Positions 387-51,809 of a DNA stretch of 64,000 nucleotides are shown here, in pieces. The translations under genes and the position numbers were made by a program. The stretch is from Gemmatimonadota bacterium (GTDB lineage Bacteria; JAAXHH01). The stretch covers positions 1,725,235-1,789,234 of the forward strand of contig VXMB01000009.1 in the NCBI GenBank assembly GCA_009841265.1. Reading direction: 5' to 3'. The notes below the pieces were generated by a model that saw nothing but the letters and a program-made list of their open reading frames with translations, was not told the DNA's origin and did not search any database. Position 1 is the first letter of the stretch. Every line of letters starts with the position of its first letter.

Positions 387-1295
387 TCAATGGCCGTTGT
401 TCAACGCGTATCGACGGATCGCCCAGGCAAAGCCGTTCTCGTGGTTCGGCGGGGCGATGAACAGGCCCTGCGCCCGGCCCGCATCCTTGACCGCGTCCTG
501 GGCGTTTTCCATGATTACGCCCAGACCCGCGTTGAACAGCATGGGCAGGTCGTTGTCGCCGTCCCCGACGGCCATCACGTGATCCATGGATATCCCGTGC
601 TCGCGCGCGACGAACTCGACGGCGACCTTCTTGTTGACGTCGGCGTGCATGGCTTCGATCCGGTCCGGATTCGTCTTGACGAGATAGAGGCGGGAGGCGA
701 AACGGGTCTTCAACTCCGCCAGGACCGCCTCGCGCCGGTCCAGGCCGGGCAGGATCAGCATCTTGGGCGGCGGGGGATAGTCGCCCCGTCTCAGTCTCGC
801 CATAAGGTCGTCGTCCCGGTCGACGGCGGCGCGGCTTTGTTCCTCGATGGATGCGATGGAAGGGGTGTATTCGTTGGTGATCACGCTGTCCAGGGGGCCG
901 CTTTCCGTCACACGCAGCCAGCTGTATACGAAATTGAATCCGTTTTCCTCGATGAAATCCAGCAGGTCCAGGAAGACGTCTCGTTGAATGCGCTTTTCGA
1001 AGAGCAAGGGCCTCTGCCCCTGCCGGACCGGCCCGAGAATGATGCCGCCGTTGTTGGCGATGACGTAAAGCCGGTCGAACAACTGCCGAGCATCGCTGAA
1101 AGGCTCGCAGCTGCGGTCGATGTTGCGACCGCTCACGGAGCTCACGACCAGTCCCTGTTCGAGGGCGGCTTCGATGGCGTGCAGCCCCTCGGAGGAGGGT
1201 TTCCCGTTGGGCAACAGCGCCGTGTCGTCCTGGTCGAAGGCGATCAGCTTGATTACGGGGGTTTCGTCGCTGGCTTTCGGTACTTCCGCGATCAT
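387..1295 (-). CDS. Cof-type HAD-IIB hydrolase (sugar phosphatase-like)
   Basis: AFDQDDT motif I variant, SVSGR, NKKVAV, VGDGDNDLPM motif IV, GVIMENA. Confidence 0.85.
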   Translation of the reverse strand: MIAEVPKASDETPVIKLIAFDQDDTALLPNGKPSSEGLHAIEAALEQGLVVSSVSGRNIDRSCEPFSDARQLFDRLYVIANNGGIILGPVRQGQRPLLFEKRIQRDVFLDLLDFIEENGFNFVYSWLRVTESGPLDSVITNEYTPSIASIEEQSRAAVDRDDDLMARLRRGDYPPPPKMLILPGLDRREAVLAELKTRFASRLYLVKTNPDRIEAMHADVNKKVAVEFVAREHGISMDHVMAVGDGDNDLPMLFNAGLGVIMENAQDAVKDAGRAQGLFIAPPNHENGFAWAIRRYALNNGH

Positions 1296-1314
1296 GGCGT
1301 TCCTTTCCGAACCC

Positions 1315-3030
1315 TCAGGTTTCTGCTTCGCTATCCTTCAGTCGCTTTCCAATGCTGCCTCCGGGATGGTACCGGGCGAAGTCCTCGCGGGTAAATCCGC
1401 GGCCGGCCTTCAGCGCCATGGCAAGCCCGTCGGCCGCGGCGAGCTGGCAGGACGTGCTCGCCGTCGGCGCGAGGCCGAGGGGACCGGCCTCACTCGCCAC
1501 GGGCACGTGCAGGATCGCCGCGCTCGACCGGGCTAGACTGGATGAAGGATCCCCCGTGATCGCGATGATCGTCGCGCCGTTTGCGGTGAGGGTTTGCACG
1601 GCGGCCATCAGTTCCGCTGTCTCCCCGCTGTGGGAAAGAGCGATGGCCACGTCCCCTTGCGCAACCTGGCCGCTGTCTCCGTGATTGCAGTCGGCCGGAT
1701 CGAGGAAATACGCCTTCGTGCCGGTACTCTGCAGCGTGGCCGCCAGCTTGCGGCCGATATGACGGGACTTCCCCACGCCGGTGACGTGTACGCGCCCCCC
1801 GGCGGCTTCTGCCTTTCGAATGATTGCGATGGCTTCGTCGAAGTAGGTGTTGGACATGCCTTCATGCAACGTGGAAAGCGCTTCGGCAGTCCGCTGTACG
1901 GCCTTCAGTCCGGCCGCACCGGGGGTCGCTGTGCCGGGGGTCGCCGCGGCCGACGCTGTCTCGGTGGAATCGGGTATCTCGGCTTTCACCGTTGCCGTTT
2001 CCGAGGCGGCCACGGTTTCGGGCGCGTTCCGGACAGGGATCGGAGCGCCTTCGTACAGGGCCATCACGTCTTCCCGGCTCGATCCCAGCTGCGGGAAAGC
2101 CCCTGGGATGCGGCAACACACGGCGCCGCAGGCGTTGGCGAGCGATGCGGTATCCCGTAAAGAAAGCCCGTGGAAAAGTCCCGCGATCAGTCCGCCCAGG
2201 AAGGCATCCCCGGCGCCGGTGGTGTCCCGGGCTTCCACGGGTTTCGCAGGCGCACGGACCGTCTGCTTCCCGTCGGTGACGACCGAGCCCTGCGCTCCTT
2301 CGGTGATGGCCACCAGGCGGGCGCCGTACCGGTTGAAAATACCCTCGGCCCGTTCTTCGGAAGTGTCGGCTTCCACCATCTGCAATGCGGCGGCTTTTGC
2401 GGGTTTCACGACGTCGGCGAGACTCAGGGCTTCCTCGAAATCTTCGGCCGAACCGAGTCCGGCCACTTCGATGGCGAAATCCGGGGGGACATCCACGTCC
2501 AGCACGGTGGGCACGCCGGCCTCGCGGGCGATCCGCAGCACGGCGATGACGGCATCCAGCGGTAGTTGGGAGATCTCTGTCGTCACCATGGCAGCCGACC
2601 GAATGTAGTCGGCGAAATGCGTCTCCACGTGCGTGGCCGTGGTCTCCGCCGTCAGGGCACGGGCCATGTAGATTGCCCGGTCCGCGTCTTCGGCCACGTT
2701 CACCACCGAAAAGCCCGATGCGCGTCCTTCGACGACCCGAATGGCCGACCGGTCGATGCCGTGGCGGTCCATCTCGTCCCGGATCATCGCGCCGTACCGG
2801 TCATCTCCCTGAAATCCGAACAGCCCGGCGGGAACCCCCATCTGGGCCGTCCAGGCCAGGTGATTCAGCGTCACCCCGCCCGCGATCTCGGTGACGACCG
2901 ATCCCGATTCATCCGGCAGGATATAGGTTTTCTCCTCCGGACCCGCGATCCGGTTCACCCGGTAGATCACGTCCACGACGTTGCTTCCGATACCCACTAC
3001 CCTGCGGGTCCGGTCGATCTCCTGGATCAC
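1315..3030 (-). CDS. Fusion: PfkB/ribokinase-family kinase + KdsD/GutQ-like SIS sugar-phosphate isomerase (no CBS domains)
   Basis: N-domain has DTTGAGDAF PfkB signature; C-domain TGVGKSRHIGRKLAATLQSTG, HGD, SHSGET, LAPTAST, HPGGSIGKRL match arabinose-5-phosphate isomerases. Confidence 0.88.
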   Translation of the reverse strand: MIQEIDRTRRVVGIGSNVVDVIYRVNRIAGPEEKTYILPDESGSVVTEIAGGVTLNHLAWTAQMGVPAGLFGFQGDDRYGAMIRDEMDRHGIDRSAIRVVEGRASGFSVVNVAEDADRAIYMARALTAETTATHVETHFADYIRSAAMVTTEISQLPLDAVIAVLRIAREAGVPTVLDVDVPPDFAIEVAGLGSAEDFEEALSLADVVKPAKAAALQMVEADTSEERAEGIFNRYGARLVAITEGAQGSVVTDGKQTVRAPAKPVEARDTTGAGDAFLGGLIAGLFHGLSLRDTASLANACGAVCCRIPGAFPQLGSSREDVMALYEGAPIPVRNAPETVAASETATVKAEIPDSTETASAAATPGTATPGAAGLKAVQRTAEALSTLHEGMSNTYFDEAIAIIRKAEAAGGRVHVTGVGKSRHIGRKLAATLQSTGTKAYFLDPADCNHGDSGQVAQGDVAIALSHSGETAELMAAVQTLTANGATIIAITGDPSSSLARSSAAILHVPVASEAGPLGLAPTASTSCQLAAADGLAMALKAGRGFTREDFARYHPGGSIGKRLKDSEAET

Positions 3031-3109
3031 GAAATACCACCTTCTTGGGAATCACTCGAGCGGCCGGTATCTCAGTGGCCGGTACCTCTTAACACGCGTA
3101 ATTTTATAT

Positions 3110-3137
3110 TGTCAACATTGATTAAAATAAGAATCAA
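3110..3137 (-). promoter_or_regulatory. Perfect -35 hexamer (TTGACA, 3115-3110) with adjacent inverted repeat TTGATT-N8-AATCAA (3118-3137) upstream of kinase-isomerase operon
   Basis: Read directly in an AT-rich intergenic stretch; no convincing -10 at 17 bp. Confidence 0.4.
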
Positions 3138-3200
3138 CATATATTTTTGTGATGGACATGCCTGCGCTATGGGCAAGCTTACGTTATGGACGTGCTTTAA

Positions 3201-3758: not shown

Positions 3759-4640
3759 TCAGCCGCTGTTTACGAGTACGACCGCGACCAGGGTCAGGCC
3801 GATGCCGACGTAGGCCAGCCCGCGCACCTGCTCTTTCCAGTACAATATAGCCACGAGCGTAGTGATGACAAGGCCGACCGCGCTGACGAAGGGAAAGACG
3901 ACCGTGCCGGGGAGGTACTTGAGCGTGAGGACCAGGAGCCAGGTCCCCGAGACGTTGACCGCGCCAAGGAGGACGCTCCACCGCAACTCGGGCATGCGTG
4001 CCTGTATCGGTTTAGTCCAGAAGTAGAAGAACCCCATGATTCCGGATACGGCAAAGAGGGAAAAGAGGTAGAGCGGCATCTGGCTCTGGGGCGCGAGTTC
4101 GCTGAAGACCTTCGGGGACAGGTGGCAGAATCCGGTCGTGATGAAGAGGGCGCCGACCAGCCAGGCGACGCCGCGCAGGGACAACTCGGCCTGTCTGCCC
4201 ACGCCGAGCGTCAGAAGCGGCAGGGCGATGCAGACCGTTATGATGCCCGCGATTTGCGCCAGGTTGGGGACCTCGTACCATATGACGATGGAACAGAGGA
4301 TGGGGATGAGGACGGACAGGCGGACGATGGCCAGGGTCACGGCCACCCCGCCCTGCAGGAGCGCCTGGATCAGAAAGCGGAAGGCGACGAAATAGAAGAA
4401 TCCGCTGGCCGCGCCGATCCACACGGTAGTCCAGTGCCAGACCCAGCCCGGGTCCGCGAGCATCAGCAGGCCGGAGATCACGGCGCCGGCGCCGTAATTG
4501 AGGCTGCCCACCGCCAGGGCATTGTGTCCGTTGTGGTGGGCGGACTTCAGGATCAGGCCGAAGCACGACGTCACGACGGTCGCCGTGATCAGCAGAAGGA
4601 GTCCGAGCGCCGTAGTCTGTTCTCCGTCCTTAGATAGCAA
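3759..4640 (-). CDS. DMT/EamA-family transporter
   Basis: About 10 hydrophobic helices in two EamA-like repeats; start uncertain. Confidence 0.75.
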   Translation of the reverse strand: MLSKDGEQTTALGLLLLITATVVTSCFGLILKSAHHNGHNALAVGSLNYGAGAVISGLLMLADPGWVWHWTTVWIGAASGFFYFVAFRFLIQALLQGGVAVTLAIVRLSVLIPILCSIVIWYEVPNLAQIAGIITVCIALPLLTLGVGRQAELSLRGVAWLVGALFITTGFCHLSPKVFSELAPQSQMPLYLFSLFAVSGIMGFFYFWTKPIQARMPELRWSVLLGAVNVSGTWLLVLTLKYLPGTVVFPFVSAVGLVITTLVAILYWKEQVRGLAYVGIGLTLVAVVLVNSG

Positions 4641-35145: not shown

Positions 35146-36186
35146 ATGGATCATGCATCGTCACCCCGGATCCTCGTGGTGCGGCCCGACCGGATCGGGG
35201 ACGTGGTGCTCTCCCTGCCGGTGCTGGACGCCCTTCGGCATCGCTGGCCAAAGGCCTACCTGGCCATGTTGGCGCGTCCCTACACCCGGGACGTACTCGA
35301 GCGAAATCCCTGCCTGGACGCCATATTCGAAGACGATCCGGAGTCTGTTCACCGTGGTCCGGCGGGTTTTTTAAGGCAGGTGCGGCGACTGCGCGCCCAG
35401 GCCTTCGACACCGCCCTGGTGCTCATGCCGACCATGCGTCATGTGTGGATGATATGCCTGGCGGGCATTCCCCGGCGCATCAGCGTGGGACGGAAGGTCT
35501 ACCACGCGCTCACCCGCACCCGGTCCCTCAGCCGCCACCGCTATATACCGCTCCGCCACGAATCCGACTTCTGCCTGGACCTGGCCCGGATCATCGATGC
35601 CCGGGAACCCGGGAACCGGCCGCTGATCGAATTGAAGGAGAAGGAGCGTCAGGGGGCCCGCGCGGTCCTGGCCCGGTCACACGGACGGCCGGTCATCGGC
35701 ATCCATCCCGGCAACGGGCGCAACGCGCCGAACTGGACGGTCGAGCGTTACGCGGCACTTGCGAGGACCCTGCAGGATCGCCACGGCGCGAAGATCGTCG
35801 TGACCGGGAGCGCGGAGGAGGAGCATCTCGCCGAAGCGATTGTGTCCCCCCTGGACGGACCCGCCCTTTCGCTGGCGGGGCGGCTGACACTGGGCGAGCT
35901 CATCGCGGTAATCGGTGAACTGGACCTCCTGGTGAGCAGCAGCACGGGGCCCATGCACCTGGCCGGGGCGCTGGGCGTTCCGACGGTGTCCGTCTTCTGT
36001 CCCCTGCCCGCCAGGTCGCCCGAACGGTGGCGGCCGCTGGGCGGCCGGGACCGCAACCTCCTGCCGCCGGAGGGACAATGCCCGACCTGCGACCGCGGCC
36101 CCTTCTGCGAGCTGTCCGGCATCACCGTGGACATGGTCGGGGAGGCCGTTGGGGAGCAATTGGCCCGCGGATGTGCGAAACGATGA
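35146..36186 (+). CDS. Glycosyltransferase family 9 (LPS heptosyltransferase-like)
   Basis: ILVVRPDRIGDVVLSLP, VSSSTGPMHLAGALGVP. Confidence 0.9.
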   Translation: MDHASSPRILVVRPDRIGDVVLSLPVLDALRHRWPKAYLAMLARPYTRDVLERNPCLDAIFEDDPESVHRGPAGFLRQVRRLRAQAFDTALVLMPTMRHVWMICLAGIPRRISVGRKVYHALTRTRSLSRHRYIPLRHESDFCLDLARIIDAREPGNRPLIELKEKERQGARAVLARSHGRPVIGIHPGNGRNAPNWTVERYAALARTLQDRHGAKIVVTGSAEEEHLAEAIVSPLDGPALSLAGRLTLGELIAVIGELDLLVSSSTGPMHLAGALGVPTVSVFCPLPARSPERWRPLGGRDRNLLPPEGQCPTCDRGPFCELSGITVDMVGEAVGEQLARGCAKR

Positions 36187-37244
36187 CCGTCTCTGACACG
36201 CCATCCCGCATCCTCGTCATCCGGTTCAGCTCAATGGGCGATATCGTGCTGACCTCGCCGGTCACACGACAGTTGGACCGGCTCTTTCCGGATGCGGAGA
36301 TCGACTTCCTCACGCGCAGTGAATACGCTCCCCTGGCCCGCGCGCTCCCCGGGGTCGCCGAAGTGCAGCGCTTCGATCCAGGCACCGGCCTCTTGAGCCT
36401 CGTCTCCCGCCTGCGCGAAAGACGCTACGACCTGGCGATCGACCTGCACGGGAACCTGCGCAGCAGACTCGTTGCCATGACGGGCATCGCGAGGCGAGTG
36501 CTTCGTTACGACAAACGCCGGTTCGCCCGGATGGCCATCGTCAGGAGGCGAAGGCGGTCCAGGCCCGTACCTCATACGATCGACTGTTATCTGGAAGTGC
36601 TCGACCGGTTCGAAGCAAGCGCCGCACCTGGCCTGGAAGGCGCACAAAACGCAGCGGAGAAGAGGCTGCCGCAACTGAAAGTCGACGAAGCGTCGGCGGC
36701 CATGGTGGAGGAACGACTGGCCGGTGCCGGCATCGGGCCGGATGTCCGTATACTCGGCGTAGCGCCGGGGGCCTCCCATGGTCCGAAACGCTGGCCGCCG
36801 GAGCGGTTTGCCCGGGTAGCGGACCACATGGCGGAATCCCGCGACATGAAGATACTGCTGCTGGGCAGCGAGGCGGACCGGCCGGTCACCGGCGAGGTGG
36901 TCCATGCCATGGAGCGTCCGGCCGTGGACTGGACCGGGGCGACCGATCTCGCGATGCTGCCCGCGGCCGTGCGGCGGTGCGCGCTCCTGGTCAGCAACGA
37001 TTCCGGCCCAATGCACGTGTCCACGGCCGTGGGCACACCCGTGATCGGCGTATTCGGCGCCACCCATCCCCGCCTGGGGTTCGCGCCGGTCGGACCGGCG
37101 GACGCCGCCATAACGCTCGACCTGCCGTGCAGCCCCTGCAGCCTGCACGGGAACCGGGCCTGCCGGTTTCACACGCACGCGTGCATGGTTGATCTCGATC
37201 CCTCGCGCGTAATTGCCGAGGCGGAGCGCCGGGTACCGGTTTAG
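36183..37244 (+). CDS. Glycosyltransferase family 9 (WaaF-like)
   Basis: ILVIRFSSMGDIVL, APGASHGPKRWP, SNDSGPMHVS; ATG 36183 overlaps the upstream stop. Confidence 0.9.
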   Translation: MTVSDTPSRILVIRFSSMGDIVLTSPVTRQLDRLFPDAEIDFLTRSEYAPLARALPGVAEVQRFDPGTGLLSLVSRLRERRYDLAIDLHGNLRSRLVAMTGIARRVLRYDKRRFARMAIVRRRRRSRPVPHTIDCYLEVLDRFEASAAPGLEGAQNAAEKRLPQLKVDEASAAMVEERLAGAGIGPDVRILGVAPGASHGPKRWPPERFARVADHMAESRDMKILLLGSEADRPVTGEVVHAMERPAVDWTGATDLAMLPAAVRRCALLVSNDSGPMHVSTAVGTPVIGVFGATHPRLGFAPVGPADAAITLDLPCSPCSLHGNRACRFHTHACMVDLDPSRVIAEAERRVPV

Positions 37245-47652: not shown

Positions 47653-47697
47653 TGAGCGAGATGAGCGAGATGAGCGAGTTGAACGAGATGAGCGAAT
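47653..47697 (+). repeat. Five 9-bp units (TGAGCGAGA) upstream of ybgA-like gene
   Basis: tgagcgaga tgagcgaga tgagcgagt tgaacgaga tgagcgaat; creates in-frame extra ATGs. Confidence 0.85.
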
Positions 47698-47702
47698 TGT
47701 CC

Positions 47703-48671
47703 ATGATGGATATCCATCGGGCCGAAATGCCCGTACGCATCGGCATCTCGTCCTGCCTGCTCGGGGAGCGCGTCCGCTACGACGGCGGGCACAAGCGCGA
47801 CGACTACCTGGTGGACGTGGTCGGCCGTTACGTGGAGTGGATCCCGGTGTGTCCGGAAGTGGAAGCAGGCATGGGTACCCCGCGGGAGACCGTGCAGTTG
47901 ACCCGGGTCGACGGCGATGTCCGGATGCTGACGAAAAACGGGGTCGACCACACCGACATGGTGGACTGGTTCGCCCGCCAACGCGTGCAGACCCTGGAGC
48001 AGGCCCGGCTCAGCGGCTATATCCTGAAGAGCCGGTCACCCTCCTGCGGCATGGGAAGGGTGCCCGTGGTCCAGCCTGAGGGCGCCGCGCTCCGTAACGG
48101 GCGCGGGATATTCGCCCGGCGGCTGATGGATGCCCTGCCCCATCTGCCCGTGGAAGAAGAGCGGCGGCTGCATAACCCGCGGGTCCGGGAGAACTTCATC
48201 AGCCGGGTTTTCGCCTGCTACCGCTGGCTGCAGCTCGCCGATTCGGGCCTGACCCGGCAATCGCTGATGAGCTATCACCGGGCCTACAAGTACCTCCTCA
48301 TGGCGCACAGCCAGGAGGGCACGCGCCGTCTCGGACGGCTGCTGGCGAAACCGGAACGCTACGCCACCACCGGGGAACTGTCGGACGCCTACCTGGGCGA
48401 ATTCAACCGCGTCATGAAAAGAACGCCGTCCCGGCGGAATCACACCAACGTGCTGCAGCACATGGCGGGCTATGTCTCCGACCGGCTCGACGCCCGTACG
48501 CGCCGTGAACTGACGCGCATGATCCAGAAGTACCACGAGGAGCTACTGCCCCTGATCGTGCCCGTGGTCATGCTGCGGCACTACGTGCGCGAGTTCGACA
48601 TCACCTACCTGCAGGACCAGACCTACCTCCAACCCTTTCCCGGCGAACTGATGCTGCTCAACCAGTTGTAG
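47703..48671 (+). CDS. DUF523-DUF1722 (YbgA-like; 2-thiouracil desulfurase-type N-domain)
   Basis: GISSCLLGERVRYDGGHK, VCPEVEAG, KSRSPSCG, HYKY-like/NHTNVLQH, YLQP. Confidence 0.88.
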   Translation: MMDIHRAEMPVRIGISSCLLGERVRYDGGHKRDDYLVDVVGRYVEWIPVCPEVEAGMGTPRETVQLTRVDGDVRMLTKNGVDHTDMVDWFARQRVQTLEQARLSGYILKSRSPSCGMGRVPVVQPEGAALRNGRGIFARRLMDALPHLPVEEERRLHNPRVRENFISRVFACYRWLQLADSGLTRQSLMSYHRAYKYLLMAHSQEGTRRLGRLLAKPERYATTGELSDAYLGEFNRVMKRTPSRRNHTNVLQHMAGYVSDRLDARTRRELTRMIQKYHEELLPLIVPVVMLRHYVREFDITYLQDQTYLQPFPGELMLLNQL

Positions 48672-48704: not shown

Positions 48705-49631
48705 TCAAGTTGAGTCTAATAGTCGATCAAGTTCTGCGACTATTCCCAGTGTTGAACTAACTGTGGGGGAAAGTTCATCGGATGTTTGCTGGACTTTCTG
48801 TTTCAGTCGGTAAATTGCTGTTCGCGCCTCTTCGTCGTTTGTTCCTTCCTGAAATGTTTTAAGGAATTCGCGCCAAAACACTGTTTTGATTCCACTTAGT
48901 TGTACGTCGTTTAACTTCGTCATGTAAGAATCCATAATCCCAGTACGAGCTAAACGACCAAAGTTCCCTCCACCGTCAGATTCAGGTTTATCTAATACTG
49001 GATCTGATTTTTGTGGGTAAGGAGCAATTCCGTTTGGGATATTTATGACCGTACTCAGTTGAGTTCTTCTAATATGTTGCCAGTGGTAGTTGCGAAACTC
49101 AGCAGCAAATTTTGCAGATTCAATATACGGTTCAAAGAGTATAGGTGAACCGCTTATTACGTTACCGAGAACCCATGGAACGACTACAATCAGGTCCTGC
49201 TTCGTGCAAGCAGCGGCAGTAGTTTGGAATCTCAAACTTGGCTCAGCTTCTTTTGCCAGGAGGTACCAACCTTTGAGCTCGATTCCCATGAGGATCTCAC
49301 CACTTGACGCCTTACGTAATAGGACATCAGGGAAAGTCTGCGCTTGTCGAACAAAACTGTATAGAGGGTACTTTTCTAAAGGATCCCAAGTATTTCGCAT
49401 ATGGTTGAGAGTACCGACTACCTGTTCTTCTATTGTCGCTCCTAAGACCGTATTGAGTGTGTGCAGATCAGTTGCCATAATTCCAGATATCTGCGTCTCC
49501 GTACGGTAATAAACTGGAAGGCTCGCTATCGCTTCTATAACGTCACAATAAAGTTGATAATGCTCCCAGTCACTGTTGGGTGCTTCCTTGACTGGAGCTT
49601 CTGGTACGGTTGGGTTTTCGTTACTATTCAT
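48705..49631 (-). CDS. Putative PD-(D/E)xK restriction endonuclease
   Basis: FPDVLL...GIELKGW catalytic-like motif; ATGA overlap with upstream MTase; AT-rich. Confidence 0.6.
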   Translation of the reverse strand: MNSNENPTVPEAPVKEAPNSDWEHYQLYCDVIEAIASLPVYYRTETQISGIMATDLHTLNTVLGATIEEQVVGTLNHMRNTWDPLEKYPLYSFVRQAQTFPDVLLRKASSGEILMGIELKGWYLLAKEAEPSLRFQTTAAACTKQDLIVVVPWVLGNVISGSPILFEPYIESAKFAAEFRNYHWQHIRRTQLSTVINIPNGIAPYPQKSDPVLDKPESDGGGNFGRLARTGIMDSYMTKLNDVQLSGIKTVFWREFLKTFQEGTNDEEARTAIYRLKQKVQQTSDELSPTVSSTLGIVAELDRLLDST

Positions 49632-50668
49632 TGTTCGGCCAATCTCTCTATCGCAGCAGTATAGAATTCAGGTACTATCTCGGTAGCAAAATACCTTCGG
49701 CTTGATCGATAAGACACTACGGCACCGGGACATAGACCTCCAAAGGGCTCCCAAACAACATCGCCCGAAACCGTTGACGCGCGGACAATACGATCAATGA
49801 ATTTCAGTGGTTTCTGACTCCCGTGCAAACTACGGAATTTGTACTTCATCGCACTGCGAGATCCACGGATACGCTCAGAACCTCCGACTTGGGGTTCTCG
49901 CCAAACATTCGTGATACCAACTTCGCATTTAAATTTAGCTCGCATCTTTTCCCACTGAGAACCTGTTACCGGATTGTTGCCATCCACGCTAAAATAAGGT
50001 CTACCTTTGAGCTCACCGTGTGTATTTGCAAACTCTACCAGCTTTATAAACGTTTCAACTGGCGGGAAGTACCAAAGATGGTCGGCTGTCAGGTACTTCC
50101 TTGTCGCAGCATTGAGTACACCGCACGCTTCATTTGCTAAACGCAAAGGTAAACCTGTTCGTTTCCACTCGTACCTTAGCCATTCCTGCATATTGTAAGA
50201 TTCACTATCAACTTGAAATCTGGTAGCTTTAACATAATGTACGCACACTTCCGTAACTACAGGGAACTTCCTTAGAGTCTGGGTGTTTGCGTTTCCTGCA
50301 ATATGTCCTATTCCCTTATCCCAGATGTTACAACAACGATACTCCCACCCGTTCGATACAAGGACCGGATGTACCGTAGCCCAACCTACTTCGGTATTCC
50401 AGAACCATAGGGTGGTAGATGGTGTAGAAAACATGCTCCAAGCTTTTATGTGTTGCTCGTACCAATCTGCCAATGAATCAGCGGTATGACTGTCACCAGG
50501 AAACCCCCCGATACCGTAAGGACCATCAGAGATTATACAAGATGGCGGTGGCCAGTTTGCGTATTGACTTTCTGCATGGTCAAAGTGAATTGACACCTGA
50601 TTGCGAGTGTAAGACTCACCTTTTTCTGGTGAATTTGTGGATTGTTTTTCACTTAGTTGAACTGACAT
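49628..50668 (-). CDS. Beta-class amino (N6-A/N4-C) DNA methyltransferase
   Basis: N-terminal ISDGPYG (DPPY-like motif IV), WDKG, HGSQKPL, C-terminal VWEPFGG (motif I variant), EI...Y..A..RL. Confidence 0.82.
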   Translation of the reverse strand: MSVQLSEKQSTNSPEKGESYTRNQVSIHFDHAESQYANWPPPSCIISDGPYGIGGFPGDSHTADSLADWYEQHIKAWSMFSTPSTTLWFWNTEVGWATVHPVLVSNGWEYRCCNIWDKGIGHIAGNANTQTLRKFPVVTEVCVHYVKATRFQVDSESYNMQEWLRYEWKRTGLPLRLANEACGVLNAATRKYLTADHLWYFPPVETFIKLVEFANTHGELKGRPYFSVDGNNPVTGSQWEKMRAKFKCEVGITNVWREPQVGGSERIRGSRSAMKYKFRSLHGSQKPLKFIDRIVRASTVSGDVVWEPFGGLCPGAVVSYRSSRRYFATEIVPEFYTAAIERLAEQ

Positions 50669-50994
50669 TCAATAAACCATTGTTGTGTAACACATATTAT
50701 ATTTTGTGTGCAGTTGATTAATCGCTTTTCTGAGTCATGAGTTTTAAGCAAGTCTAACGAAGGCGCGGACTAGGGTAGTTCTATTAGAAGAAGCTATCGT
50801 GGTAGTGTCAAGTGGATTCCATTTGCAACAGAATCTAGTGACAGGTTTAACCTTCTCGGCTTACTATTGATGTTTCTAAATCCTTTCTACAAAGTACTTG
50901 ACCGTTACATCCATTAGATGAATTTTCCCTTGTTTGAGTGAGAACGTATCGTGGTCGTAATATACACCTTAGGAATTCATGGTGATCGGCTTTT

Positions 50995-51771
50995 ATGGTA
51001 GATAACCTGGTTTCCATCCAGCTCACCGACGCGCAGGTCGCCCGGTTCCACGAAGAAGGCTATCTCGTCGTCCCGGACCTGCTGACGGCGGATGAAGTCG
51101 AGGCGTTCGTCCGGCACCAGGCCGATCCGGAAGCCGAGTCCCTGAAGCAGGGGCTCCGTACCCACCTTTCGGACCCCTTCTGGCGCCGGCTGTCCCACCA
51201 TCCCAACGTGGCCGGCGTCGCCCGCCGGATCCTGGGCGGACGGCCCCGCATCGTACAGACCATGTACATGGCCAAGGAACCGGCCAAGCCGGACGAGGAA
51301 CTGGGCGGCGCCGGCATCTCGCTGCACCAGGATTCCCACTACCTGCCCAACGAGCCCGACACGTTGATGGCCTGCTGGATCGCCATGAGCGATACCGATC
51401 CGGAGAACGGCGGACTTTGCGTGGCGCCGGGCAGCCACAAGGACACCCTTCGGGAAACAACCCTGAATACCAATCCGGAGCACATGAGCTGGGAAAACGA
51501 CTACGGCATGAGATCGCCGGACGGCCGCGAATGGACCGAGAAGCTCTACTCCTTCGACGTGGTGGGCATCGAGGAGGAAGACCTCGTCCGGCTGACGGTG
51601 CCGCGCGGCAGCGGGGTGTTCTTTACCAGCAGGACGGTGCACGGTTCCTACGCCAACCGGTCGCACACCCGGCCGCGCCTGGCCTTCGCCGTCCACTACG
51701 TGAAGGACGGCACCTGGGTGTTCCGGACCGACGTACAGGATACAACCCCGGTGGATCTGCCGGGAGCCTGA
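50995..51771 (+). CDS. PhyH-family dioxygenase
   Basis: LHQDSHY, WIAM, VAPGSH, TVHGSYAN, RLAF. Confidence 0.9.
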   Translation: MVDNLVSIQLTDAQVARFHEEGYLVVPDLLTADEVEAFVRHQADPEAESLKQGLRTHLSDPFWRRLSHHPNVAGVARRILGGRPRIVQTMYMAKEPAKPDEELGGAGISLHQDSHYLPNEPDTLMACWIAMSDTDPENGGLCVAPGSHKDTLRETTLNTNPEHMSWENDYGMRSPDGREWTEKLYSFDVVGIEEEDLVRLTVPRGSGVFFTSRTVHGSYANRSHTRPRLAFAVHYVKDGTWVFRTDVQDTTPVDLPGA

Positions 51772-51809
51772 CCCAGGTTTATACTGGAGATTCATTTCCT
51801 GGAGAATCG

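Follow-up and report, generated by a model that had tools for sequence, protein, structure and literature searches.

Almost all bacteria that bear lipopolysaccharide (LPS) need 3-deoxy-D-manno-octulosonic acid (Kdo), and the first committed step toward this sugar is carried out by KdsD, a D-arabinose-5-phosphate isomerase (API) that has been studied as an antibacterial target. The Escherichia coli enzyme, like its paralogs GutQ and KpsF, combines a SIS domain with a tandem pair of CBS domains, and its gene stands at the head of the order kdsD-kdsC-lptC-lptA-lptB-rpoN. Single-SIS APIs that lack the CBS pair also exist; these are stand-alone accessory paralogs, carried by genomes that have KdsD or that have no LPS, and they can complement kdsD gutQ mutants. 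The gene described here differs from both types. It lies in a 64,000-nucleotide stretch of DNA (the window) from a Gemmatimonadota bacterium (JAAXHH01; assembly GCA_009841265.1, contig VXMB01000009.1, positions 1,725,235 to 1,789,234) and encodes, on the minus strand at 1315..3030, a 571-amino-acid protein in which a PfkB kinase, a flexible linker, and a CBS-less KdsD-type SIS isomerase follow one another. A Cof-type phosphatase gene comes next. The SIS domain is very probably the organism's only API, performing the role of KdsD in Kdo and LPS synthesis and replacing the SIS-plus-CBS kdsD both here and in several other lineages. Taken together, the best explanation of the locus, and on balance a probable one, is that the SIS domain supplies the KdsD function, the PfkB domain is a pentose kinase, and the Cof protein is KdsC-like.

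The strongest argument comes from the rest of the genome. When all 3.74 Mb of it (97% complete) were searched in six frames with the KpsF model, the fusion was the only match; a separate kdsD was not found, which leaves the fusion as the only candidate. The remainder of the Kdo pathway is nevertheless present, including the KDO-8-P synthase KdsA (326 bits, above the curated cut-off), the transferase WaaA, and a cluster with the order kdsB-kdsA-lpxL-like-lptC-lptA-lptB-rpoN. Two GT9 heptosyltransferase genes, adjacent and overlapping (35146-36186 and 36027-37244), also lie in the window, as had been noticed in the original prediction; they confirm that heptose is part of this organism's LPS inner core, built on Kdo. 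Because the fusion is the sole API candidate in a genome where KdsA, KdsB, and WaaA exist, and because its catalytic residues are conserved (described below), it would act as the housekeeping KdsD, its SIS domain converting ribulose 5-phosphate to arabinose 5-phosphate for KdsA.

The same pattern recurs well beyond this one genome. The closest relatives are uncultured, mostly marine, metagenome-assembled genomes (MAGs) that carry the label Gemmatimonadota or Latescibacterota; from their isolate names, we take some to be sponge-derived. Full-length KdsD was found in none of 33 relatives from the same phylum-level group. In 32 of them the only match was to the SIS part of the model (positions 1 to ~153), located in a frame of 553-681 amino acids in 31 genomes and in a 386-amino-acid frame on a short contig in the other. 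Within this clade the fusion is single-copy. In Poribacteria, Acidobacteriota, and Myxococcota-type clades, likewise, none of 24 fusion-bearing genomes had a KdsD, and KdsA was present in 17 of the 21 genomes tested from these other phyla. Would the search have detected an ordinary KdsD? A reverse control used an even sample of 91 Acidobacteriota genomes, in which only the seed genome has the fusion. A SIS-only match was obtained in 86 of the 90 fusion-less genomes, one per genome in all but two, and the frames were mostly ~320-410 amino acids, the size of an ordinary KdsD, with about a quarter of the stop-to-stop frames being longer. The control genomes thus show that the method detects KdsD where it is present, and the distributions indicate that the fusion and the ordinary enzyme are mutually exclusive. 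In all, the fusion is the sole API candidate in 57 fusion-bearing genomes, this one and 56 others.

Could the fusion instead be a purely catabolic or salvage module, turning D-arabinose or Kdo-derived arabinose into ribulose 5-phosphate, while an unrecognised enzyme makes the Kdo precursor? The logic of joining a kinase to an isomerase fits such a module, and the aldolase-kinase-isomerase gene order seen in Myxococcota-type loci (described below) looks catabolic. Such a module is nonetheless improbable, since no other API accompanies the fusion in the 57 genomes even though KdsA, KdsB, and WaaA are present, and since it is strictly complementary to ordinary KdsD in Acidobacteriota. Its single-copy occurrence in 32 of 33 clade relatives is also unlike that of an accessory sugar-utilisation gene. 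Of course, the two roles do not exclude each other: the interconversion of ribulose 5-phosphate and arabinose 5-phosphate is reversible, so that envelope and catabolic functions can coexist. The original prediction had proposed either D-arabinose catabolism or salvage into Kdo. Its link to Kdo stands, while the idea of a mere catabolic or salvage accessory does not, as the fusion is most likely the housekeeping KdsD.

The isomerase domain occupies amino acids 368-571 (1318..1929, minus strand). It matches the NCBIfam KpsF model TIGR00393 over model positions 1-153 of 268 (170 bits, E 5.6e-50) and the KdsD equivalog NF008141 over positions 16-202 of 328 (E 7.8e-49). Positions 154-268 of TIGR00393 are unmatched, meaning that the tandem CBS half is absent; set against the KdsD/KpsF/GutQ family, the protein therefore has the KpsF-type SIS domain without the CBS pair, and its score lies below the whole-protein cut-off of 203.7 bits. 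The best solved relative, 5uqi, is a 198-amino-acid CBS-less isomerase (with 5vhu, presumably c3406 of E. coli CFT073) to which the domain aligns nearly end to end (residues 29-195, E 1e-37). The SIS structure of E. coli KdsD, 2xhz, is matched with E 4e-34 and 119-122 bits. In an alignment of 49 sequences, reaching down to 42% identity, residues K421, H450, E473, E514, and H555 are invariant. They align to the GxGKS, HGD, SGE..E, E..PLGLAP, and HPGG motifs of 5uqi and 2xhz and correspond to the catalytic K59, H88, E111, E152, and H193 of E. coli KdsD. Family models, structure alignments, and invariant catalytic residues all support the earlier assignment of the domain as a KdsD-type API.

How does the domain compare with the two known types of API? 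With E. coli KdsD it shares the type of SIS domain, the five catalytic residues, the inferred role of making arabinose 5-phosphate from ribulose 5-phosphate for KdsA, and, in one fusion lineage, a place on the chromosome ahead of a phosphatase gene and lptC-lptA-lptB-rpoN. It differs in having no CBS pair, in scoring below the curated cut-offs, and in the addition of an N-terminal 334-amino-acid PfkB domain and a 33-amino-acid linker. With the single-SIS, CBS-less enzymes (5uqi/5vhu, 3etn of B. fragilis, 3fxa of Listeria, and the C. tetani API) it shares the length of the isomerase module and an end just after HPGG, the fusion stopping 13 residues beyond this motif. Unlike those stand-alone accessory paralogs, it is joined to a kinase and is its genome's only API. 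Stand-alone CBS-less SIS genes do occur next to relatives of the kinase, in the split operons L104, L113, and L115.

The fusion itself is real. The ORF begins with a GTG codon preceded, 8 nucleotides upstream, by AGAAGG, and in Pfam residues 42-311 match PfkB (E 2e-45) while residues 413-538 match SIS (E 2e-25). An AlphaFold2 model built from 49 homologs has a mean predicted local distance difference test score (pLDDT) of 88.6 and shows two confident domains. Between them is a linker of 33 amino acids (335-367; 1930..2028, minus strand) that is rich in Ala, Pro, Thr, and Glu, varies in length among homologs, as seen from alignment gaps, and is predicted by its pLDDT of <50 to be disordered. 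The predicted template-modelling score (pTM) of the model is 0.61, and no fixed packing of kinase against isomerase is predicted. Pfam, NCBIfam, and AlphaFold2 together bear out the original description of one 571-amino-acid frame joining a PfkB domain, an Ala/Pro/Thr linker, and a KdsD-like SIS domain without CBS. A protein database search with the fusion returned 1479 proteins at E<=0.001, with PfkB+SIS proteins among the matches listed on top and the full-length architecture kept in those top matches listed. Relatives were also found in 161 stretches of a species-genome collection, and from these homologs the recurrence of the architecture is judged to be far beyond chance. Public records give the proteins generic names, such as "SIS domain-containing protein" and "PfkB family carbohydrate kinase," or a JGI compound name. 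No study of a PfkB-SIS fusion was found in the literature searched, which did not reach many subscription papers.

What does the N-terminal domain do? The kinase spans amino acids 1-334 (2029..3030, minus strand), scores 155.9 bits against PF00294 (gathering threshold 25.8), and has the hallmarks of the PfkB family in its GG dipeptide and its TGAGD catalytic and anion-hole motif. Its invariant residues are GS..D20, G51-G52, N56, and T271-G-A-G-D275 (TGAGD275AF). In a Foldseek search, the first 50 structures were all ribokinases, the sulfofructose kinase YihV, or pseudouridine kinase, and the ribokinases of E. coli and Thermus gave TM-scores of 0.87-0.88. Ribokinases (E. coli RbsK, 1rkd) and the wider PfkB family thus have the same fold (root mean square deviation 2.3-2.6 A) and share with the domain the GG dipeptide, TGAGD, and the Asp of GS..D. 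The sequences, in contrast, are only 21-26% identical, and the residues that align to the ribose-binding N14 and K43 (E. coli numbering) are Val. NCBIfam scores fall far under the equivalog cut-offs, with the ribokinase model TIGR02152 at 107.5 bits (cut-off 299.65) and NF008353 at 90 (cut-off 341), and the best match is IolC-N at 116 bits. These scores and differences indicate that the domain is not a ribokinase ortholog. It defines a PfkB subfamily of its own, found both fused and stand-alone, with the shared motifs GS-x-x-x-D, GG(V/L)(T/V)LNHLxW, (D/E)RAIYM, TE(I/V)SQLPL, and TGAGDAF, of which LNHLxW and RAIYM set it apart from ribokinase.

A second difference concerns the NXXE motif, which is thought to be needed for Mg and phosphate handling in PfkB kinases. 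The fusion kinase does not have it, which the original prediction had not noticed. At this position stands K209-P-x-K212, the segment P210-A-K212-A-A214 (PAKAA) lying opposite PNETE of the ribokinase 4x8f. The replacement, KP(A/S/T)K, is seen in all 18 aligned fused and stand-alone members, and two other PfkB paralogs in the same genome retain PNxxE. Has the domain then become mainly regulatory, a nucleotide or sugar sensor with little or no kinase flux that took over from the CBS pair? Domains that bind adenosine derivatives were lost exactly where a nucleotide-binding domain was gained, and the loss of the NXXE metal and phosphate motif would fit as well. On the other hand, neither the Asp of GAGD nor the residues of the sugar site vary among 49 sequences with identities as low as 42%, and this strong conservation of catalytic Asp and sugar site argues for an active kinase. 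The same kinase also occurs as a stand-alone protein, sometimes far from any SIS gene, and in the fusion it sits at the N terminus, where a disordered linker sets it apart from the isomerase and no interface between the two is predicted. A mainly regulatory domain is accordingly an unlikely reading of the fusion.

If the domain is an active kinase, which sugar does it phosphorylate? The most useful clue is the neighbourhood in Myxococcota-type loci, where a divergent class I aldolase resembling N-acetylneuraminate lyase (NAL) and dihydrodipicolinate synthase (DHDPS) lies directly upstream of the fusion in 20 of 22 cases. The same genes occur in split versions, as aldolase, kinase, and SIS-only genes (L104/L105 and L115), as aldolase and kinase (L116), and as kinase, SIS-only, and Cof genes followed at some distance by EamA (L113). 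The aldolase (360-396 amino acids, directly upstream of the kinase or fusion in L079-L097, L104, L115, and L116) scores only 27 bits with Pfam DHDPS, and its GTTGE and GIK(V/T) motifs are visible. As far as we know, Kdo or an isomer of it is the only substrate from which a pyruvate aldolase would give a C5 partner for an API, and the enzyme is a candidate Kdo aldolase. It was also considered as a replacement for KdsA and rejected, as KdsA is present in all nine Myxococcota-type genomes tested. The simplest chain would run from Kdo to pyruvate and D-arabinose, then to arabinose 5-phosphate, which would be interconverted with ribulose 5-phosphate.

From this sequence context, the most likely substrate of the kinase is a free pentose, phosphorylated at O5. 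The order aldolase-kinase-isomerase, a fold like that of ribokinase, and the joining of consecutive steps in one protein together favour a D-arabinose 5-kinase, and conversion of D-arabinose to arabinose 5-phosphate is the best guess at its reaction, held at a little less than even confidence. Conversion of D-ribulose to ribulose 5-phosphate is possible and ranks next. Either product would feed the same pool by way of the flexible tether. The original prediction had likewise named D-arabinose, citing a reported link in Clostridium tetani between CBS-less isomerases, neighbouring ribokinase-like kinases, and phosphorylation of this sugar; for the fusion the proposal is plausible. To our knowledge, no gene has so far been linked to bacterial D-arabinokinase (EC 2.7.1.54), and within the same reach of the literature no sequenced D-arabinokinase or Kdo aldolase gene was found. 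One further protein accompanies this kinase elsewhere: a 203-amino-acid protein without a Pfam match lies directly upstream of Poribacteria fusions and of a stand-alone kinase (L007:7337-7948, L043, and L102:4393-5004), with copies 55-61% identical to one another and none in the window's genome.

The aldolase also invites a different order of events, in which the kinase acts on Kdo itself as a 2-keto-3-deoxy-acid kinase. In this semi-phosphorylative route, Kdo would become Kdo-8-phosphate, which the NAL-like aldolase would split into pyruvate and arabinose 5-phosphate for isomerization to ribulose 5-phosphate. NAL-family KD(P)G aldolases are known, the best NCBIfam match of the kinase (116 bits) is to an IolC-type keto-deoxy-acid kinase, and its (D/E)RAIYM motif resembles GERxFxY, a motif of KdgK and fructokinases. 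However, the route would join nonconsecutive steps in one polypeptide, KdgK is not among the top 50 Foldseek matches, and the candidate carboxylate-binding Arg, R124, is not conserved. Moreover, the kinase is strongly conserved in the window's own clade, which is without the aldolase and where phosphorylation of Kdo would be pointless beside a possible Kdo-8-phosphate phosphatase. A Kdo kinase is therefore highly improbable, and a free-pentose kinase is the preferred reading in what follows.

Downstream of the fusion is the gene for the Cof-type HAD-IIB phosphatase (302 amino acids; 387..1295, minus strand), assigned from its match to Pfam Hydrolase_3 (PF08282, 122.5 bits), a TIGR00099 score of 103 bits that is under the cut-off of 137, and its invariant columns. 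The HAD signature is recognizable in D21-x-D23-x-T25 (motif I), K222 (motif III), and GDGDND at 244-249 (motif IV); D21, D23, T25, K222, G244-D245-G246, and N248-D249 are invariant among Cof orthologs. The original prediction placed the gene 19 bp beyond the fusion, which the two ORFs, both on the minus strand, bear out. At every clade locus, with fusion identities down to ~60%, Cof is the gene immediately after the fusion, and it is retained in the split operon L113. A scan of metagenomes centred on Cof, which used generic HAD motifs, returned unrelated Cof-type phosphatases and a sole relative, in L117, where the gene adjoins a GFO/IDH/MocA oxidoreductase and a xylose-isomerase-like TIM-barrel protein. 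Cof was also weighed as a universal partner of the fusion and rejected, as its orthologs occur only in the window's clade.

What might the phosphatase contribute? Canonical KdsC was found neither in the window's genome nor in any of the 17 genomes of the clade that were tested; in the former the KdsC model TIGR01670 gave only partial matches of 25 bits elsewhere and none to the window's Cof. At locus L101, whose kinase domain is 63% and whose Cof is 45% identical to those of the window, the order is fusion, Cof, lptC, lptA-like, lptB, rpoN, so that the fusion-Cof pair stands in the slot of kdsD-kdsC. Because KdsC is missing from the clade and the pair occupies this slot, Cof may replace KdsC: it would be a Kdo-8-phosphate phosphatase, with fusion and Cof the functional counterpart of kdsD and kdsC, a tentative assignment held at somewhat below even confidence. 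Cof shares with KdsC (YrbI) its place after the API gene, its place before lptC-lptA-lptB-rpoN in L101, and the DxD of the HAD superfamily. It differs in being a capped HAD-IIB protein of ~300 amino acids rather than the ~180-amino-acid cap-less type and in having no TIGR01670 match. A house-cleaning phosphatase, as first suggested, is probably not the right description, since with KdsC missing and the L101 slot occupied a Kdo-8-phosphate phosphatase is at least as likely. The L101 locus has peculiarities of its own. On its 4.5-Mb long-read contig, assembled at 16x coverage, the region that encodes the SIS part (L101:5764-6336) is interrupted by frameshifts and falls into three frames, which reflects either indel errors in the assembly or a true pseudogene. 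The contig also has, at another site beside a transposase, a near-duplicate copy of this locus (L100).

The triad of isomerase, PfkB kinase, and HAD phosphatase also recalls the heptose pathway enzymes GmhA (SIS), HldE (RfaE), and GmhB (HAD), HldE being, like the fusion, a PfkB domain joined to an LPS-precursor enzyme. By analogy, arabinose 5-phosphate would be phosphorylated at C1 and the HAD enzyme would remove the 5-phosphate, yielding arabinose 1-phosphate for a nucleotide sugar. A weak match to rfaE domain I (E 3e-15) and an NTP_transf_3 gene ~0.8 kb downstream in L115 would be in keeping with this. The likeness does not extend far, as the partner of the kinase in HldE is an adenylyltransferase rather than a SIS isomerase, and both the SIS type of GmhA and the HAD class differ. 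The fusion's SIS domain is KpsF-type, and its rfaE domain I score of 56 bits compares with a cut-off of 345. No nucleotidyltransferase lies beside the fusion in the window's clade, Cof is absent from most fusion-bearing phyla, the pyruvate-type aldolase found with the kinase is more in keeping with a free sugar as substrate, and the best structural matches of the kinase are ribokinases, which act on a 5-OH. A nucleotide-sugar pathway is thus quite improbable. Elsewhere in the window's genome are separate genes for a GmhA-like protein (126 bits) and an HldE-kinase-like protein (223 bits); these count against this pathway too, and on their account the heptose-pathway reading was rejected.

Several observations weigh against the combined reading of KdsD-like isomerase, pentose kinase, and KdsC-like phosphatase. 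(i) For Cof, orthologs are confined to the window's clade and were not found in the other fusion-bearing phyla, and its solved relatives are generic sugar-phosphate phosphatases. Many fusion-bearing genomes, in Myxococcota and Poribacteria, have neither KdsC nor Cof. KdsC is in fact missing from most fusion-bearing genomes, with or without Cof, and an absence so common is only weakly informative about the role of Cof. The linkage to the Lpt genes, in turn, is seen in a single lineage, the very one in which the SIS part is frameshifted. (ii) For the kinase, the loss of NXXE means that its chemistry may be unusual, and the window's own genome has no NAL-like aldolase. With the pTM at 0.61 and no fixed interface predicted by AlphaFold2, channelling between kinase and isomerase is not indicated. 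(iii) The genomes are MAGs, though many are closed and 95-99% complete, and the whole account is inferred from sequence, fold, and phyletic pattern.

A more far-reaching version of this reading can be put forward as well. Here the PfkB domain would be a bacterial D-arabinokinase without NXXE, tethered to a CBS-less isomerase as an alternative KdsD in several diderm phyla. A NAL-type aldolase would close a Kdo recycling loop in the Myxococcota-type clades, and Cof would replace KdsC in the clade of the window. The whole would amount to an undescribed variant of the Kdo front end. This fuller scheme is rather doubtful as a whole.

Fusion and Cof are putatively co-transcribed, as first suggested, judging from the 19-bp gap (1296..1314, minus strand), its ribosome-binding-like run GGAAAGGA located 7 nucleotides before the ATG of Cof, and the absence of a terminator-like site between the two genes. 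Upstream of the fusion is an AT-rich leader of 170 bp (3031..3200, minus strand) with a TTGACA box and the Shine-Dalgarno-like AGAAGG, a putative promoter region. A short direct repeat, TACCGGCC ... TACCGGCC, lies between the TTGACA box and the start codon. Upstream, beyond the leader, lies dcd, a gene that many syntenic loci lack. Neither the leader nor the rest of the fusion-Cof region has an Rfam match. At the other end, a 150-bp spacer between Cof and the next gene carries a GC-rich 27/54-bp tandem repeat (262-358; 3.6 copies) that is found nowhere else in the genome. It was considered as a structured terminator and rejected, since shuffled sequence folds at least as well (z = +1.6). The gene beyond encodes a MetH-like homocysteine-binding domain with a likely ATG near 233. 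Another neighbour, on the minus strand at 3759..4640, is an EamA/DMT-family membrane transporter, recognized by PF00892 and synteny and matching no specific NCBIfam family. Its place near fusion and Cof is conserved across the clade and also in the split version L113; that the transporter imports a sugar is speculation. Farther away, the window contains a low-GC island (48705-51795; GC 0.52-0.54 versus ~0.64 elsewhere) with an N6/N4 DNA methylase gene (49628-50668) flanked by ORFs of 308 and 272 amino acids without a Pfam match, possibly a restriction-modification or other acquired element. Adjoining it is a gene for a fusion of 2-thiouracil desulfurase and DUF1722 (47661-48671).

Overall, the protein would represent a variant of KdsD that has lost its CBS pair, gained a kinase, and replaced the canonical gene across several phyla. 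The lineages without an ordinary KdsD, namely the mostly marine clade of the window, Poribacteria, part of Acidobacteriota, and Myxococcota-type clades, would rely on the fusion for this step. Annotation of the Kdo pathway in metagenomes is affected, since automated pipelines would score both kdsD and kdsC as missing. The kinase domain is a concrete gene candidate for a D-arabinose 5-kinase and offers a natural PfkB kinase without NXXE for mechanistic study. For the bacteria themselves, its fusion to the isomerase points to a physiological link between salvage of free pentoses or Kdo and the supply of LPS precursors.

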